Part shown: in pieces, positions 7,232 to 30,708 of the stretch | Numbering within the stretch: the first letter of the stretch is position 1 | Layout: the number at the start of each line of letters is the position of its first letter | DNA from: Planctomycetales bacterium | GTDB lineage: Bacteria; 4484-113; JAFGCY01 | Direction of reading: 5' to 3' | Assembly (NCBI GenBank): GCA_022646745.1 | Contig: CP060262.1 | Span: 120,001 to 152,000 of the forward strand | DNA: 32,000 bases | Program-made: the position numbers and the translations under genes | Notes under the pieces: model-generated | Databases searched by the model: none | Told to the model about the DNA's origin: nothing | What the model saw: only the letters and a program-made list of their open reading frames with translations

Positions 7232-8293
7232 ATGCGTCTGTTCGCGCTGCTGGTGGTGCTGGCCACGCCTGTCGTGCTGGCGGCTTGCCGCGATTCCGGG
7301 ACGGAAGGCAATGACCAGTCGCTGGCTGAAGTCCAGCCAGCCGCAGTGCAGGATGACACGCCAGAACCAGCTGACACCGCCAGTCCTGCGGAACCCCTGC
7401 CTGACCACCCCCACCAGGCAGACCGGGTTTCCGATGCCGGCTCCACACTTTTCCCCAATGCCGTCATGCTGGAAATGCCATCCATGGATGGATATCATGG
7501 CTACCAGCACAACTGCCGTTGCCACTTCTACCGTCCCGAGGTATTCGACCAGGATGAAAACAACGTCCCCGCCAAAGAGTATCTGAGCCTTGCGGATCTG
7601 CAGCTTGCGGACCAGGAGGAAGTCATTTACATTGACCCACTCCTTGAGATTCATTCTTCAAGAGAATGGGAGAACAGATTCACCGTCGTCTGCTGGAAGG
7701 AATGGCATCTGGATCCGAACATTGGTGGCAAGCCTTTTCCCAAGCTGAGTTACGACAGCTGGATTTCAGTGTTTGATGAAAACGGACAACTGGTTGGCAG
7801 GACTGACAGCCTTGACAGGGTGGAGCGGATGGTGGAATGGCGTCCATCCAGCTCCGACCAGATGACGATATTGCTGGTGCAGGAGTTCCTGGGAGATCAG
7901 TACTTCTTCAACATTGAAGCGGATGGCAGTCTGGAATTACAACTCGAAGTTGGTATGGGCAGGGAAAACAGCTTCAACTTTCTGGCGTGCGGATCGGCAG
8001 TGCCCGGCGGTGAATTTGGAGAGGAGTGCTTCTCAATCATCCTGCCTGCTGGAGGGTCTGTTTCCACTGTCAACCATCAGGGCAACTTCATATACCTGCA
8101 TGACTGCCGTATGCCGGACGGGCGATCAGCAGCTGATGTGGACACCGGCTACTTCATCATCCGTTTTGGCAACGATCGCGTGTTCCCCTTCAGCTATGTG
8201 GAGGACTTTGACCTGAGCCGCTTCTGGTCAGTGCGTGATGAGATTCCGGCGGACTCCGGGCTGATTATCGCTGGCAATGTAGGAGGTGACTGA
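7232..8293 (+). CDS. Lipoprotein of unknown function (tandem paralogue A)
   Basis: 353-aa ORF with GGGAGGTGAGG upstream. MRLFALLVVLATPVVLAAC is a signal peptide plus lipobox. It shares blocks with the next gene (FTVVC, S.I.VFD..G.L, DCR.PDG, GY.I.RFGN..V.PFSY). Confidence 0.8.
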   Translation: MRLFALLVVLATPVVLAACRDSGTEGNDQSLAEVQPAAVQDDTPEPADTASPAEPLPDHPHQADRVSDAGSTLFPNAVMLEMPSMDGYHGYQHNCRCHFYRPEVFDQDENNVPAKEYLSLADLQLADQEEVIYIDPLLEIHSSREWENRFTVVCWKEWHLDPNIGGKPFPKLSYDSWISVFDENGQLVGRTDSLDRVERMVEWRPSSSDQMTILLVQEFLGDQYFFNIEADGSLELQLEVGMGRENSFNFLACGSAVPGGEFGEECFSIILPAGGSVSTVNHQGNFIYLHDCRMPDGRSAADVDTGYFIIRFGNDRVFPFSYVEDFDLSRFWSVRDEIPADSGLIIAGNVGGD

Positions 8294-9268
8294 GTGATGC
8301 CGTTCCTGCTCCTGCTGCTTGCCTGCGTTCTGACACTGGCTTCCTGCCGGCAGGCAGCTGAACCAGCGGATGAAGTGAAAGCAGCACAGGACCCGTTGCC
8401 TGTCGCAGACCAAGCGGGGGAAATCTCGCAGCAAGCGCAGTTCCTGTATGGCAATGCACGCTCCAGCCTGTTCCCGGATGCCCTGCTGCTGGACATGGTG
8501 CCGCCAGATGAACTGCGCATTCCTGACCAAAAGGCAATGTACGTCGTGCGTCCTGAGGAAGAAATACCTGAGGGCCTGCAATTCAATGAACTCGCTGCAC
8601 TGCAACGTGCCGTTGATGCGGATGATTACGTCATTGAGGCGCGATCGCCGATTACCGTGGATACGGATACCGGGTACCGGGATTTCACTGTGGTCTGCTA
8701 TGCCGAGAATTACCTGGTTGAGCTGAGCTGGGGCGAGAAGTACCGCAAAGTAGCCTACTCCAGTCAGATTGCCGTGTTTGACGATCAAGGCAAGCTGACA
8801 GACCAGGCAGGCTGTGACAGGCTGCAGGGCATGGTACTGGAAGGCAAAATGCTGCACATCACCGCATTCAGTCCGGAGCACCAGTGGCTGAATATCACTT
8901 CTGAGGGAAAGCTACAGACTGAGGTCTCCATCTTCTTCGGTCCCGGCTGGGATAACCTGCAAAGCAAGGAAAGCCTGTACGAAACTGAGCTTCATACGGA
9001 AACCTGCCGTTACATCGTGATCCCGGTGCAGTGCGGACACAACCTCGAAATCCACTACCGCGGGGAGTACCTCTTCAACCAGGACTGCCGCACACCTGAT
9101 GGACTTGCCCCCGAGGATCTGAAGGAAGGCTACATGATCTATCGCTTCGGCAACGAGCATGTCTGGCCCTTCAGCTATGCGCGGGAACTGGACGCGCTGG
9201 CTGTGCTGTCCAGCGGCGATGAAATCCCCGGTGGATCAGGGCTGATCAACCTGGGCGGGCTGGACTGA
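8294..9268 (+). CDS. Lipoprotein of unknown function (tandem paralogue B)
   Basis: 324-aa ORF. It starts at GTG 8294 or ATG 8297, directly after the TGA of the upstream gene, with AGGAGG at 8281-8286. LLLLLACVLTLASC is a lipobox. It is colinear with 7232..8293. Confidence 0.8.
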   Translation: MMPFLLLLLACVLTLASCRQAAEPADEVKAAQDPLPVADQAGEISQQAQFLYGNARSSLFPDALLLDMVPPDELRIPDQKAMYVVRPEEEIPEGLQFNELAALQRAVDADDYVIEARSPITVDTDTGYRDFTVVCYAENYLVELSWGEKYRKVAYSSQIAVFDDQGKLTDQAGCDRLQGMVLEGKMLHITAFSPEHQWLNITSEGKLQTEVSIFFGPGWDNLQSKESLYETELHTETCRYIVIPVQCGHNLEIHYRGEYLFNQDCRTPDGLAPEDLKEGYMIYRFGNEHVWPFSYARELDALAVLSSGDEIPGGSGLINLGGLD

Positions 9269-21954: not shown

Positions 21955-22028
21955 CACCCGAGCTCCTAGTTCCCAGATACCAGCACGCTACAACTTACAA
22001 CCCAGATCCTCCAACCTCGTTAGCCCTC
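21955..22028. repeat. Inverted, degenerate copies of the 36-nt-unit words
   Basis: The reverse complement reads ...ggttggaggatctgggttgtaagttgtagcgtgctggtatctgggaactaggagctcgggtgtag. These are the same GGTTGTAG / GCTGGGA words as 21681-21842. It abuts the stop of the peroxiredoxin gene. Confidence 0.6.
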
Positions 22029-22511
22029 CTAGCCCACTATCTGCTTCACAGCATCGTAAGCCTCGGACACATGGTCCGCCACGTTGCCACGTCCCTCGTA
22101 GTAGTAGATATGGCGGATCACTCCCTTGCCATCGATCACGAAGGTGATGCGCTTCATCTCCTTGCCGGTCGGGGCCGGGGTGCCGAGCTTGAGCCGGTAC
22201 TCCCAGTCATTGTCAACGAGCAGGCCGAAGGGCAGGCCGAGCTTGGCCGCGAATCCCTGGTGTGACTTGACTGAATCCTTTGAAACGCCGAAGACCTCGG
22301 CGCCCAGCCTGGTGAACTCGCTGTAGAGCTCACCGAAGGCTGAAGCTTCAGTCGTTCAACCCGGGGTGTTGTCCTTCGGGTAGAAGAACAGCACGAAGGG
22401 CTTGCCCTTCAGGTCCTTCAGGCTGACCGTGCCGCCGCGATGGTCCTCCATCGTGAAGTCCGGTGCCTTCTTGCCGACGCTCAGGCCGTCTCCGCCAAAT
22501 GTCTCTGCCAT
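22029..22511 (-). CDS. bcp: Bcp/PrxQ-type peroxiredoxin with in-frame TGA (candidate selenocysteine) at the peroxidatic Cys position
   Basis: ATG 22509-22511 with GGAAGGG upstream. The product reads KAPDFTMEDHRGGTVSLKDLKGKPFVLFFYPKDNTPG-[TGA 22356-22358]-TTEASAFGELYSEF...FVIDGKGVIRHIYY to TAG 22029-22031, all in one frame (hand-translated). That gives 160 codons, the normal Bcp length. Confidence 0.75.
22328..22346 (-). other. Candidate SECIS-like hairpin downstream of the in-frame UGA
   Basis: Minus-strand RNA GCUUCAGCCUUCGGUGAGC starts 9 nt after the UGA. It forms an imperfect GC-rich stem (GCU-C-GCC / GGU-G-AGC with bulges) and a small apical loop. It was folded by hand only. Confidence 0.3.
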
Positions 22512-22901
22512 GTATCCCTTCCTGGAAAGTGATCGGCATATTCTAGGACATGGGAACTTGTCAACGAAGCAGGCGTGATGCCATGTCTGCAGGTTCAATT
22601 GAAAGTCTCTGCGTCTCCGTTTTCGCTCAGCGCCTCAGCGCCAAGAAAACCAGACGGGCGAGCACGCTCTGTTTCGAGCGCTTGCGAGTCATCTTGCTTC
22701 GCTTACGCTCGACAGGCATGGTGGCCATTGAAACGGTTCTTTTGGCGCAGAGGCGCAGAGAATAAATGAGGCGCAGAGAATGTCGTAAACATTTCCCCGC
22801 ACATTTCATTGCCAGGCATGCCGGCTTGCATGTTGCATCACAAAGCATGCCCTCTTCGTGCCTTCGAGGTGAAAACTTGTCCGGATATTTCCCGACTTCC
22901 G

Positions 22902-23225
22902 CTAGGTTGCGATCACCGTGTAGGTCTGGAAGTCCGAGGTCATCGGCGGCGTGCGGCCCTCTTCCTTCGCCTTCTGGATGTCCTCGAAGCCGCGGCGGTG
23001 GCCCTTCAGGAAGGCCTCGCTCTTCGTCCAGGCCTTGAAGTGCTCCTCCGCCTCCCAGTGGGAGACGATCAGGTAGGGCTTGCCCTCGCTGGCCGGCCGC
23101 AGCACTTCCATGTACTTGAAGCCCTCCATCTTGTCGATCTCCCCGGCCCGGGTGGAGAACAGGTATTCAAAGCGCTCAGCGAATTCCGGCTGGCACGTAA
23201 TGTAATTGATTGTGACAAAGGTCAT
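22902..23225 (-). CDS. Antibiotic-biosynthesis-monooxygenase (ABM) / IsdG-like domain protein
   Basis: 107-aa ORF with GAGAGGA upstream. The pattern MTFVTINYITCQPEFAERFEYLF.....IDKMEGFKYMEVLRP....KPYLIVSHWEAEEHFKAWTKSEAFLKGH is the ABM/IsdG pattern. Confidence 0.85.
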   Translation of the reverse strand: MTFVTINYITCQPEFAERFEYLFSTRAGEIDKMEGFKYMEVLRPASEGKPYLIVSHWEAEEHFKAWTKSEAFLKGHRRGFEDIQKAKEEGRTPPMTSDFQTYTVIAT

Positions 23226-23367: not shown

Positions 23368-24360
23368 GTGACCGATTATACGCCGCCTCAGGCATTCTGT
23401 AAATACTGTGAAGGCCCGGATAAGCTTACCCGCCGCTTCCCGCGATATCATTTCCCTGTGAGCGATAGCAGTGCACCCACCAGGAACCGCCCCGGCTGGA
23501 TCCGCGTGCGCCGTCTCGACCTGGCCACCGAGGAGCAGGTCGGCACGACGCTGGGCGGACTGGCGACGGTCTGCCAGAGCGCGAACTGCCCCAACATCGG
23601 CGACTGCTGGGGCCGCGGAACGGCGACCTTCATGGTGATGGGCGACAAGTGCACCCGGGCCTGCCGCTTCTGCAATGTGGACTTCGGCAAGCCTGAACCC
23701 CTTAATCCGCATGAACCGGCGCAGCTGGCCCAGAGCGTCCGCGAATTGGGACTGAACTTCGCCGTAGTGACCTGCGTGGACCGCGATGACCTGACGGACA
23801 GCGGCTCACAGCACTGGGTGGACTGCATCGACGCCGTGCATGCCGTTGGCGAGGGCGTGAAGATCGAGGTGCTGACCGGAGACTTCAAGGGCAGCGAAGC
23901 TGACATCGCGCGCGTGGTGCGCAGTGCCCCGGAAGTGTTCGCCCACAATGTGGAGACCATCCCGCGCCTGCAGGGCCGCGTGCGCCACAAGGCGCGCTGG
24001 GAGACCAGCCTGCGTGTGCTGAAGCTTGCAAAGAAGATCGCGGCCGACGAGGGCATCCCGCTCGTCACCAAGAGCGGCATCATGCTCGGGCTGGGAGAGA
24101 GCTTCTTCGAGGTGCAGGAGGCGATGCACCTGCTGCTGGATGAAGGGGTGGAGATCCTCACCATCGGGCAGTACCTGAAGCCCTTCGACCGGCCGGACAA
24201 GCTGGCGGTGGAGCGCTTCGTGGAACCGCAGGAGTTCGAGCGCCTGCAGGAGTACGGCCTGTCCATCGGCTTCGCCGGGATTGCCAGCGGGCCGCTGGTG
24301 CGCAGCTCCTACCGGGCGGAGACGCTGTACGAACAGGCGATGGCGCGCAAGGCGGGCTGA
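23368..24360 (+). CDS. lipA: Lipoyl synthase
   Basis: It carries the motifs CQSANCPNIGDCWGRGTATFMVMGDKCTRACRFCNV (both LipA Cys clusters) and a radical-SAM core. The longest ORF starts at GTG 23368. An in-frame GTG at 23458 preceded by TATCAT-N6 is an alternative start. Confidence 0.93.
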   Translation: MTDYTPPQAFCKYCEGPDKLTRRFPRYHFPVSDSSAPTRNRPGWIRVRRLDLATEEQVGTTLGGLATVCQSANCPNIGDCWGRGTATFMVMGDKCTRACRFCNVDFGKPEPLNPHEPAQLAQSVRELGLNFAVVTCVDRDDLTDSGSQHWVDCIDAVHAVGEGVKIEVLTGDFKGSEADIARVVRSAPEVFAHNVETIPRLQGRVRHKARWETSLRVLKLAKKIAADEGIPLVTKSGIMLGLGESFFEVQEAMHLLLDEGVEILTIGQYLKPFDRPDKLAVERFVEPQEFERLQEYGLSIGFAGIASGPLVRSSYRAETLYEQAMARKAG

Positions 24361-25251: not shown

Positions 25252-27030
25252 ATGCCTCTGCAGCACCGCGCCATTGGCAAGCTGCTTGCCATTGCACTTC
25301 TCTGTGTATCCGCCACCGCCTGCGGGCGCTCCCCCGGCAGGATTGACAACAGCACCGCGGACCCCGCAAGCCTGCAACAAGCGATGGCTGCGCACGACCC
25401 CGCCGTGATGGACCAGCTTCGCAGCGAACTGGAGCGTGTGCTGGCACAGCGCGGGATTGAGCTGGATGCGGCGGGACAGCCGCTGCGCTCCGTTTCAGCT
25501 ATCCCAAAGCTGGTCTACCGCCAGCCCGGCTGGTTCAGTGACTTCAACGGGGACACCGCGGTGGGCTGGGCGCATTACCAGCAGGGCGACTATGACCTGA
25601 ATGGCGAGGTCAACATCTCCGACCTGACCCCGGTCGGCATCCACCTCGGCAAGAGCACCGCCAGCCCGGACTGGCTGACGGCGGCGGTGGTGGCGGATGG
25701 TGATGGCAACGGTGAGATCAACATCGCGGACGTGACCCCGATCGGGCAGAACTTCGCCGCCCGCGTCTCCGGCTACATGGTGCAGGCCCGCGAGGCCAGT
25801 GGTGAATGGCACGAGGTCGGATTCGCGCCGATGGAAAGCGGCATCAAGTCCGGCCCGGGACTCGAGTTTGGCTACTTTGCCAACGGTGGCGAGGTCGAGG
25901 CGGACTGGCGTGTGGCCCCGGTGGCCGGTGTGCGCGAATTCAGCTGGAAGCGCTACGCGCTGACAACGCAGGACTTCCAGCACTTCGACGTGCAGGGCTG
26001 CATCGTGGACGGCAGGCCGGCTCTGGTCTACGAGCGCTACGGGCTGACGCCGGACACGCATGACGGCTTCGCGATCGCCGCCGTGGCGCGGCCGCAGTCC
26101 GCGGCGGACTGGTACCTGGAGGATGACCTTGGGCATTTCCTGTATGACAACAGCCCGGTCGCGATTGCCTCAGTGGACGGAAAGCCGGCGATAGCCTACG
26201 TGGACTACAGCGCAGCACCGGTTTCATTTGCTGTGATGTACAGCCGCCGCGACAGCGCAGTGGCCGGGCCCGCCGGCTGGAGCACGCATCAGGTCACCAG
26301 CCTGTCCGCCAACCCGGTACGGCTTGCATTGACGGTACGTGAGGGCCGGCCATACATCCTGTTCAACAACAGCGGGCTGGAGGCCTGGCAGGCGAACACT
26401 GCACAGCCGAGCGGGCCGGCGGACTGGAGCGCTTACAGCGCGGCGCCGGGCTTCAACGACTTCCGCAGCCCGCAGTGCATTGCCAGCGGCCCCTGGCTGT
26501 TCAGCTGCGGACTCGGTGTCACGCCCGCCCCATACCTGCTGTTCAACCGCTCAACGGTTGTGGCCCCGAACGGCTCCGGCAGCTTCAGCGAATACTTGCT
26601 GACGCCGGTTGATTCGGCCTATCCGCCAAGGCTGATGCTGATTGCCGGCCTGCCCTGTGTAGTGGTCTCCGACGCGACAAGTTCCTCCCTGCAGTTCCTG
26701 CAGGCCGGCAGCCGCACTTCGGCCAGCGCGGCCAGCTGGTTCCAGCATGCGATCGTGGCCCAGCCCGGGTCGGACCTGCACTGGGAGCCGGCAGCGGCCC
26801 TGGTCGGCGGCCGGCCGGCGGTGGCCAGCGGCTACAACGAGCTGAGGCTGTACTGGACCGGCGGGCAGTTCCCTGACAACAGCGACCAGTGGAGCAGCCA
26901 GCCGGTGGACGATTCCGCGGAGCCCTTCGACCGGGTGCTGCTGGCGCTGGACGGCCTGCCTCTGGTACTGGAACTGGGCAGCGGAGGCGCCAACAGCCAG
27001 GTGGTTGTCAACATCGGGAATGAACAGTGA
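25252..27030 (+). CDS. Lipoprotein: dockerin-like double Ca-binding loop + ~7 propeller-like repeats (paralogue 2 of 3)
   Basis: 592-aa ORF with GGAGGTGGAGAG upstream. It has the signal peptide LLAIALLCVSATAC. The dockerin-like segment reads GDYDLNGEVNISDLTPVGIHLG...ADGDGNGEINIADVTPIGQNF. The repeats read VDGRPALVY...PQSAADW, VDGKPAIAY...AGPAGW, REGRPYILF...PSGPADW and so on. Confidence 0.85.
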   Translation: MPLQHRAIGKLLAIALLCVSATACGRSPGRIDNSTADPASLQQAMAAHDPAVMDQLRSELERVLAQRGIELDAAGQPLRSVSAIPKLVYRQPGWFSDFNGDTAVGWAHYQQGDYDLNGEVNISDLTPVGIHLGKSTASPDWLTAAVVADGDGNGEINIADVTPIGQNFAARVSGYMVQAREASGEWHEVGFAPMESGIKSGPGLEFGYFANGGEVEADWRVAPVAGVREFSWKRYALTTQDFQHFDVQGCIVDGRPALVYERYGLTPDTHDGFAIAAVARPQSAADWYLEDDLGHFLYDNSPVAIASVDGKPAIAYVDYSAAPVSFAVMYSRRDSAVAGPAGWSTHQVTSLSANPVRLALTVREGRPYILFNNSGLEAWQANTAQPSGPADWSAYSAAPGFNDFRSPQCIASGPWLFSCGLGVTPAPYLLFNRSTVVAPNGSGSFSEYLLTPVDSAYPPRLMLIAGLPCVVVSDATSSSLQFLQAGSRTSASAASWFQHAIVAQPGSDLHWEPAAALVGGRPAVASGYNELRLYWTGGQFPDNSDQWSSQPVDDSAEPFDRVLLALDGLPLVLELGSGGANSQVVVNIGNEQ

Positions 27031-28873: not shown

Positions 28874-28971
28874 GGGGAAGTCTGGGTAGTTAGAATAGTT
28901 TGAATAGTGGAAGAAGTTGTTAGTGCTTGGTTCTTAGTAGCTGCGGCGCTAGGCCGCGGGGAGGTGCAAGG

Positions 28972-30708
28972 ATGAAGGCAATGCGCTTGACAGCAGCGGC
29001 GCTGCTGATCACCTTACTGGCAGGCTGTGGTGGCAATGGAGAGACCGCCGCGCCGCATGCAAGCAACCCCGCTGACACCAGTACTATGCTGCGCGCTGAG
29101 CTCGATCGTGTGCTGGCACAGCGCGGCATCGAACTGGACAGCTCAGGCAGGCCGACCCGCACTGTATCCTCCCTGCCCAAACGCGTCTGGCGGCACCCGC
29201 AGCGCTTCAACAACCTGCTGCTGCTGACGGCGGAGCTGAGCTGGGGGCATTACCAGCAGGGCGACTACGACCGCAACGGCGAGGTGAACATCTCGGACCT
29301 CACACCGGTGGGCGTGCACCTCGGCAAGGACACCACGAGCCCTGACTGGGCGGCGGCACAGACCGCGGATGGCGATGCCAACGGCGAGATCAACATCGCC
29401 GACGTGACACCGATCGGGCAGGACTTCGGCGCATCCGTCGGCGGCTATGTGATCCAGGTGCGTGACACGCCGGGCGCTGACTACCGCGATTACGGCTTCG
29501 TGGATTTCGCGGACGGCGTTGACAACGGCAGCTTCCGCGAGTTCAACTTCAGCGCCCCGGCCGGGTCCGATGCGGATGACTACCGCGTCTCACCCGTCGG
29601 CAGGACGCGTGAGTTCGACTGGCATGTGTACCGCCTGGAGCTGCCCGGCACATCGCAGCTGGAACCGGCCATTGCCGTGCGGGACGGTGGCCTGATGCTG
29701 GCGGCCGTGGATGACGATGCCGGGCGGCTGCTGTTCGCCGGCACGAATGAGCTGCATCCGCTGGCGGCAGCGGACTGGGTCGCGCATGTAGTCGATGCAG
29801 GCGGGGTGCAGGCCAGCCAGCCCGGCCTGGCAATGATCGGCGGGAGTCCGGCAATCGCCTACTGCGGTACAAGTTCCAGCTTTGCGTTTGAGGTGCGCTA
29901 TGCACGCGCGCTGATCGTCAACCCCGGCGCGGCCGCGGACTGGCAGTCGCACGGGATCGAAGGCGGGCTGCCGCTGCAGAGCGTGCGCCTGCTGGAGAAG
30001 GACGGGCTGCCGGTGCTGACAGTGCAGAACGGCAGCGGCGGGGTGTACCTCGGGGTCAGTGCCACGGCCACGCCATCATCGGACCTAGACTGGGCCGATG
30101 TGAACGTCAGCGGTGCGGCGACCCTGAACCTGCCGGAACTGGCCCTCGTTGGCAACCGGGTCTGTGTCGGCAGCTACCAGTATGGCGGTGCCGGCGAGGC
30201 CTACTTCAGCGGTGCCAGGATCAGCCACCCGGTGAATGCCTCGGACTTCGACAGCTTCCCGGTCTGGACCGTCGGCATCGAGGCCCAGCGCCCAAGCGTG
30301 CTGGCCTGCGGTGGCTACCCGGCGATGCTGGTGCCGGACCTGGACAGCGGGGAGCTGGACTTCCTCTACTCATCCGAGCCCCAGCCCACCAGCGCCGCCA
30401 GCTGGTTCGTGCATTCCGTGGCAACGGACTCGCCGGACTTCATCAACCCGGACAGTGTGCTGCTGGACGGCAAACCGGCCGCATCATTCGGGCGCTCAGA
30501 CATCAACTTCGCCTGGGGCAGGCGCGGCATCCCGGACCAGCCGGATGACTGGCTGCTGCAGCAGGGCATGGAGGAAGGGATCATCAACTTCGGCATCGGT
30601 GCAACGAGCATCGTGGTGTCTGACTACCTGCCGGTGATCGCATTCACTGAGTATGACAACATCAATGGCGTGCGGCATGTGGCGATTGCAGTGGCGACGG
30701 AGCAGTGA
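28972..30708 (+). CDS. Lipoprotein: dockerin-like double Ca-binding loop + ~7 propeller-like repeats (paralogue 3 of 3)
   Basis: ORF 28927..30708. The start is at ATG 28972 (GGGAGGTG upstream), giving MKAMRLTAAALLITLLAGC. It shares LRAELDRVLAQRGIELDSSGRP with paralogue 2. The dockerin-like segment reads GDYDRNGEVNISDLTPVGVHLG...ADGDANGEINIADVTPIGQDF. Confidence 0.85.
   Translation: MKAMRLTAAALLITLLAGCGGNGETAAPHASNPADTSTMLRAELDRVLAQRGIELDSSGRPTRTVSSLPKRVWRHPQRFNNLLLLTAELSWGHYQQGDYDRNGEVNISDLTPVGVHLGKDTTSPDWAAAQTADGDANGEINIADVTPIGQDFGASVGGYVIQVRDTPGADYRDYGFVDFADGVDNGSFREFNFSAPAGSDADDYRVSPVGRTREFDWHVYRLELPGTSQLEPAIAVRDGGLMLAAVDDDAGRLLFAGTNELHPLAAADWVAHVVDAGGVQASQPGLAMIGGSPAIAYCGTSSSFAFEVRYARALIVNPGAAADWQSHGIEGGLPLQSVRLLEKDGLPVLTVQNGSGGVYLGVSATATPSSDLDWADVNVSGAATLNLPELALVGNRVCVGSYQYGGAGEAYFSGARISHPVNASDFDSFPVWTVGIEAQRPSVLACGGYPAMLVPDLDSGELDFLYSSEPQPTSAASWFVHSVATDSPDFINPDSVLLDGKPAASFGRSDINFAWGRRGIPDQPDDWLLQQGMEEGIINFGIGATSIVVSDYLPVIAFTEYDNINGVRHVAIAVATEQ

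Follow-up and report, generated by a model that had tools for sequence, protein, structure and literature searches.

Sec-containing peroxiredoxins are known from prokaryotes. The selenoprotein families of prokaryotes tabulated in a 2026 review include 'Peroxiredoxin (Prx), PF00578, TxxU', and the review describes the conserved PxxxTxxU motif (PMC13188914). It cites PrxU from Eubacterium acidaminophilum (Sohling et al. 2001), an experimentally verified Sec peroxiredoxin of the AhpC/TSA family (PMC13188914). The Prx selenoprotein family comprised 43 genes in the Sargasso Sea (PMC1088965) and 253 members in GOS (PMC2398784), and several Cys-to-Sec conversions were inferred within it (PMC1794560).

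The window analyzed here, a stretch of DNA of 32,000 nt, harbors a gene on the minus strand (22029..22511) that very probably encodes a 160-residue thiol peroxidase of the Bcp/PrxQ type, in which Sec replaces the peroxidatic Cys and the UGA is recoded with the help of a SECIS. This reading was built from sequence comparisons: translation, Pfam and PDB matches, and collinear orthologues. With the catalogued Prx selenoproteins (PF00578/COG1225 Bcp, TxxU), the predicted protein shares the Pfam family, the PxxxTxxU motif, a peroxidatic Sec, and a hairpin within the ORF. The AhpC/TSA family and the type of a Sec peroxiredoxin are also common to PrxU, but the subfamily is different. The product of the window gene has 160 aa and is of the Bcp/PrxQ type, whereas the PrxU profile (NF040737) has 233 positions; with a score of 60.7 bits and a cut-off of 270, the equivalog level was not reached. 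Since Prx is listed as a selenoprotein family in the literature, the kind of feature is already known, and the first-pass annotation was right to call Sec peroxiredoxins not unprecedented (PMC13188914, PMC1088965, PMC2398784). The gene represents one more clade, from an under-studied lineage, for a selenoprotein family catalogued since 2001-2005, and as such is unsurprising to a specialist.

Translation of the minus strand gave a frame of 160 sense codons from the ATG at 22511-22509 to the TAG at 22031-22029. It contains only one internal stop, a TGA at 22358-22356 in the context FVLFFYPKDNTPG*TTEASAF. This in-frame UGA (22356..22358, minus strand), which we read as selenocysteine, is codon 52 and occupies the peroxidatic position. 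A Shine-Dalgarno-like AGGAAGGG was recognized by reading the sequence 4 nt 5' of the ATG (22516..22523, minus strand). Neither the read-through product nor any of its orthologues contains a Cys. The list of open reading frames shows the N-terminal part alone, as 22356..22598, and the NCBI record of the gene is a 92-aa 'redoxin domain-containing protein' (MCB1221590.1, UNM10020.1) that corresponds to the C-terminal fragment. The first-pass annotation had described the 160-codon frame with its coordinates and its single TGA, the end of the listed frame at this codon, and the lack of Cys elsewhere in the protein, and had expected that automatic annotation would miss the gene. Translation, the ORF list, and the NCBI record agreed with it on all these points.

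For the Pfam profile search, a Cys was placed at codon 52. The AhpC-TSA profile (PF00578) was matched over its whole length (1-124/124) with an E value of 2.5e-38 and a score of 131.2 bits, where the cut-off is 26. The nearest solved structures were Bcp proteins, namely 5enu (E 1.7e-33) and Bcp1 of Sulfolobus (3drn, E 8.8e-28). 5enu has the identical motif YPKDNTPGCTTE, with the Cys of its PGCT opposite the TGA in the alignment. Because of this alignment to an identical motif, the TGA lies in the column of the peroxidatic Cys, and 38 Cys-containing homologues agreed with this assignment, which the first-pass annotation had already made for the Bcp/PrxQ family. The active-site motif reads P45-K-D-N-T49-P-G-U52 (P-x-x-x-T-x-x-U). 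R121 is the Arg of KRITFVID and corresponds in the alignment to that of ERSTFLID in 5enu (R-x-TF-[VL]-ID motif). As P45, T49, U52, and R121 are all present, the catalytic set is intact. The best NCBIfam scores were obtained with the PrxQ (NF053650, 93 bits versus a cut-off of 260) and Bcp (NF006960, 86.9 versus 140) models, yet both remained below the equivalog cut-offs, and we therefore limit our claim to membership at the family level.

The window protein has the fold family and the active-site sequence in common with the Cys-containing Bcp/PrxQ proteins (5enu, 3drn, and Xanthomonas Bcp 3gkk), but carries a predicted Sec where those proteins have Cys at the peroxidatic position. A second difference concerns the resolving residue. 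In most Bcp proteins, position +5 is a resolving Cys (the genome homologues read CTxEAC). The resolving Cys of atypical 2-Cys Bcp proteins (+5 in helix alpha-2, or in alpha-3) is absent in the window protein and in its orthologues. Lacking any Cys, the protein belongs to the 1-Cys mechanistic type.

Orthologues were searched for among 5.8 billion proteins and by a scan of one genome per species. The three best matches of the protein search were C-terminal fragments of 92, 101, and 104 aa with 99, 82, and 72% identity, followed by full-length, Cys-containing Bcp proteins with at most 52% identity. Gene callers thus had stopped at the same TGA in the relatives, and on contigs L001-L004 a 51-residue AhpC-TSA piece was called directly before the C-terminal fragment. 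The genome scan revealed four more MAGs with the TGA arrangement (L009, L010, L011, and the partial L012), with the titles 'bacterium isolate UBP7 HKST-UBA01/03', 'bacterium AC1.30', and 'Planctomycetales bacterium Ww346'. Altogether the TGA was found in the same codon in the window, L009, L012, L001-3, L004-6, L010, and L011. The 11 contigs come from Logan, ENA, and NCBI MAGs, where they belong to nine or more independent assemblies, and they represent four lineages with 77-99% amino acid identity. The orthologues are collinear over all 160 codons. The first-pass annotation had suggested looking in relatives for TGA or TGC/TGT at this codon and for signs of decay. All close orthologues had TGA, while TGC or TGT was present in 38 more distant genome homologues (<50% identity, active-site motif matched) with L062 as an exception; further stops or frameshifts did not occur in any orthologue.

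A wrong base call or assembly error at a codon that is truly TGC or TGT would need only a single-base difference, and errors or mutations at this codon do occur, as illustrated by a related database protein of the Cys clade with Arg in the column (P0121, described below). Recurrence of the TGA in 11 contigs and at least nine independent assemblies makes such an error hardly conceivable here. The orthologues are also not assembly copies of one sequence, because they differ by 18-23% of their nucleotides. We determined dN/dS between the lineages by the Nei-Gojobori method. Values were 0.17-0.31 for codons 1-51, with a dS of 0.29-0.85, and 0.14-0.29 for codons 53-160. The similarly low values on both sides indicate that selection on the protein acts in the same way behind the TGA and in front of it. 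This bears on the view that a recent nonsense mutation created a pseudogene whose product ends after 51 residues. The TGA does interrupt the frame, and automatic annotation does take it as a stop. The same TGA is nevertheless present in four lineages at a dS of 0.29-0.85, additional stops and frameshifts are lacking, and selection continues past the TGA, all of which renders a pseudogene exceedingly improbable.

Two adjacent ORFs were predicted at this locus, both matching AhpC-TSA, which would also fit a split gene, in which a 51-residue N-terminal peptide and a separately started C-terminal protein assemble after translation. The predicted restarts vary by lineage (products of 92, 101, and 104 aa), however, and no ATG, GTG, or TTG is found in the first codons past the TGA in the window; a split gene is therefore not credible. 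Moreover, the open frame and the selection extend over codons 53-68, which lie 5' of the predicted starts, and a split would cost the protein its catalytic residue altogether.

We analyzed whether the RNA behind the UGA is structured. In the window, the 66 nt from the UGA form a single long, imperfect hairpin (-32.3 kcal/mol, z -4.2), and none of 200 shuffled sequences was as stable. The other lineages showed the same architecture with the loop in the same place (z -1.4 to -3.0). RNAalifold, run on five distinct sequences from four lineages, on which alone the covariation rests, predicted 23 pairs in alignment columns 4-65 (22355-22294), 4 of them with compensatory double changes. In this hairpin 88.7% of the cells were paired, compared to 30-44% when the 3' partners were shifted by 1-3 columns, and the shifted controls had only 0-2 compensatory pairs. 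Folding, RNAalifold, and shifted controls thus define the candidate SECIS at 22294..22355 on the minus strand, beginning 3 nt past the UGA. Its upper helix, GGUGAGCUC / GAGUUCACC (22311..22334, minus strand), contains covarying pairs, among them 25-47 and 26-46 of alignment A3 (GC/AU, CG/UA), and its apical loop UACAGC (22325-22320) lies 30 nt past the UGA.

Like the SECIS of E. coli fdhF and the elements described by the bSECISearch model, the hairpin of the window lies within the ORF directly 3' of the UGA. In the bacterial SECIS model of Zhang and Gladyshev from 2005 (bSECISearch), the distance from UGA to loop reportedly ranges from 16 to 37 nt, and the distance of about 30 nt in the window falls inside this range. 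The small apical loop of bacterial SECIS elements starts with a conserved G (GU), which is not evident in all lineages of the window clade. The apical loops are UACAGC in the window, GUACAA, and AUCC in the lineage of L004/L010; G is absent from the first two loop positions in the window, and AUCC has no G at all. A search of Rfam returned no relevant match and no SECIS, either at the gathering score over the whole window or with E values up to 10 over 22000-22600. On the small evidence base of four lineages, the structure at 22355-22294 is well supported as conserved, and a role as SelB site is only a candidate function.

A different hairpin, at 22346-22328, had been pointed out as SECIS by the first-pass annotation. 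It can indeed be drawn in the window, but it is not part of the minimum-free-energy fold and is not conserved. Only 56.7% of its cells were paired, versus 47-50% in some of the shifted controls, and we rejected it. Another perfect hairpin, GAAGGGC-AA-GCCCUUC, is situated within the coding sequence 5' of the UGA (22394-22411, minus strand) on the codons K-G-K-P-F and was flagged by the terminator scan. Its nucleotides are invariant across all lineages, and this invariant run is statistically ordinary. Invariant codon runs at K35-F43 and G70-V76 were considered as a sign of extra constraint on the RNA level. They were not significant, because 62% of the codons for conserved residues are identical across the four lineages.

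Ten of the 15 main ORFs of the window end in TGA, among them all six genes named by the first-pass annotation, which had correctly described TGA as an ordinary stop here. The code is therefore standard. In line with this, the alignment of the radical-SAM gene of the window to L010/L011 spans exactly its 330 codons up to its TGA. We screened about 70 kb (window, L009, L010, L011) for in-frame TGA codons flanked on both sides by 40 open codons and a coding-type GC content at the three codon positions, and no other credible gene was found. An unfiltered comparison of read-through frames between the window and L009-L011 in all frames was swamped by off-frame conservation in the GC-rich DNA. When filtered for GC by codon position, it left only the Bcp gene as credible.

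These data have to be weighed against the idea that TGA is a sense codon (e.g., for Trp or Gly), or that near-cognate readthrough inserts Trp or Cys without any Sec machinery. It would agree with a frame that is clearly translated past the TGA and with the gene content of the surroundings: selA, selB, selD, and tRNA-Sec were present neither in the 32-kb window nor in about 20 kb around the orthologues (flanks of L009-L012), and a few added kb beyond the window contained no Sec gene. The tRNA scan of the window and L009-L012 detected no tRNA of any kind, hence also no tRNA-Sec. The standard use of TGA in the window, the stop of the radical-SAM alignment at its TGA, and the lack of a second gene with in-frame TGA and two-sided coding signal in the about 70 kb all speak against this explanation. 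Catalysis would be lost with Trp or Gly in place of the peroxidatic residue, and the conserved hairpin would be left without a role. We consider a sense codon or simple readthrough very unlikely. Insertion of Sec, as proposed by the first-pass annotation, is supported by the TGA in four lineages, the dN/dS values on both sides of it, the Cys in distant homologues, and the conserved hairpin.

We searched metagenome contigs for other Sec-containing Bcp genes. An earlier scan of these contigs with a protein pattern had retrieved no relative; the DNA pattern [F]-Y-P-K-D-x-T-x-G-TGA-T across the active site then succeeded. At least 120 metagenome contigs carry an in-frame TGA in a Bcp-type sequence (120/120 among the matches listed). 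Most of these listed matches have a full read-through ORF; in a few the contig ends within the gene, and in one (L137) the sequence degenerates past the TGA. In L137 (PVBE012677772.1), a Bcp-like N-terminus and the TGA (reverse-strand index 173) are followed by 63 non-Bcp codons and another TGA; probably a frameshift has made it a pseudogene, or the assembly is faulty. A resolving Cys at +5 was present in 58 of 106 distinct full-length Sec-Bcp proteins among the matches listed; 33 had Cys elsewhere and 15 were free of Cys. The 66 nt behind the codon were more structured in Sec than in Cys forms (mean z -0.94 for 121 Sec genes versus +0.05 for 40 Cys-Bcp genes, Mann-Whitney p 8e-7), with folding better than in shuffled sequences for the Sec set and not for the Cys set.

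Among the matches listed, 66 of 119 Sec genes have the loop of their main hairpin 15-19 nt downstream of the UGA, the distance being about 18 nt in most, and 69% of the hairpins of other Sec-Bcp genes among these matches had a G in the first two loop positions. The typical hairpin has the form GCGUGCGG-GUU-CCGC(G)ACGC and is built on the A-C-G-F-R-D codons. In most Sec-Bcp genes (L084-L203), the first ~35 nt past the UGA form the stem GCGUGCGG / CCGCGACGC with the loop GUU in the G-F codons. As the stem uses the A-C-G-F-R-D codons, the codon of the resolving Cys itself is part of the 5' arm of the SECIS.

The window clade differs from these genes in several respects. Among the matches listed, it is at most 46% identical to other Sec-Bcp proteins, and at most 52% to the nearest Cys forms. 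It is without the resolving Cys at +5 that is present in 58 of the 106 listed proteins, it has other residues in the stretch where most Sec-Bcp proteins have A-C-G-F-R-D, and its loop lies 29-31 nt after the UGA instead of the 15-19 nt seen in 66 of the 119 listed genes. It is conceivable, although rather doubtful, that the clade labelled UBP7/Planctomycetales converted Cys to Sec in Bcp independently, with its own SECIS at another place and with loss of all Cys. This SECIS would then have its loop about 30 nt after the UGA and no conserved G in the loop. If the conversion was independent, a SelB with unusual RNA recognition would be expected, as would a peroxidase cycle that relies on selenium alone and is resolved from outside, in a candidate phylum that has hardly been studied.

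A second, different type of Sec-Bcp gene was observed at 8286-8810 (minus strand) of L105, the contig Ga0070741_10000092; it has the sequence UTREAC with a resolving Cys. This contig has 336,348 bp, and the MAG contig JAWLAZ010000004.1 of L010 has 336,347 bp. GC contents are 62.2% for L105 and 64.1% for L010, and the two sequences do not overlap. If both contigs were the same, one genome of the lineage would encode two selenoperoxiredoxins. A search with this second Sec-Bcp gave full-length Cys forms alone among the matches listed. The protein P0121, from a 659-bp contig in ENA, is 79% identical to the Sec-Bcp of L105 and has Arg at the Sec/Cys site (PGRTKEAC). This is consistent with a CGA in place of TGA or TGC, due to a sequencing error or an inactivating mutation. 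The exception among the distant genome homologues, L062 (position 3978; MAG Gammaproteobacteria bacterium SP171), is a distant Prx-like gene whose active-site column likewise has an in-frame TGA (FFPKAFTGG-TGA-TLQCKSL). This gene, which has a Cys at +4, probably also encodes a Sec-containing family member.

For the gene of the window, we infer recoding through SelB, activity as a peroxidase, and the type of reductant as follows. SelB loaded with Sec-tRNA(Sec) would bind the hairpin of the mRNA just 3' of the UGA, as a bacterial SECIS, and would compete with release factor 2 in bringing Sec-tRNA(Sec) to the ribosome, so that the UGA at codon 52 is recoded. The selenolate of U52, located in the P-x-x-x-T-x-x-U pocket together with R121, would attack the peroxide and be converted to the selenenic acid. 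Since the protein has no Cys and consequently no internal resolving residue, an external thiol partner should be needed. Thioredoxin, glutaredoxin, or a low-molecular-weight thiol may reduce the selenenic acid in a cycle of the '1-Cys' type.

As a correction of the annotation, a complete selenoenzyme would be hidden behind a catalytically meaningless record of 92 residues, and the same error was seen in every orthologue found. The gene would imply Sec decoding in a poorly known lineage (MAGs labelled UBP7/Planctomycetales from activated sludge and related samples). It may serve as a marker of the Sec trait, and Sec decoding bears on the trace-element needs of this lineage and on its defence against oxidative stress.

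The upstream neighbor of the Sec-Bcp gene is a gene for a 107-aa protein with an ABM domain (22902..23225, minus strand; Pfam ABM, E 1.4e-17). In the window as well as in L001-L004 (coordinates 307-630 in L001 and 75-398 in L004), this gene, similar to antibiotic biosynthesis monooxygenases, is located upstream on the same strand, and it adjoins the Sec-Bcp gene in every case with available upstream sequence. The long window ORFs 521-2857, 7232-8293, and 8294-9268 had no match in Pfam. The radical-SAM gene (23368-24360, plus strand) is syntenic in L009-L011. The products of 25252-27030 and 28927-30708 (both plus strand) and of 4445-6709 in L009 are paralogues of about 590 aa without a Pfam domain and with 35-38% mutual identity, and these paralogous proteins are conserved in L010/L011.
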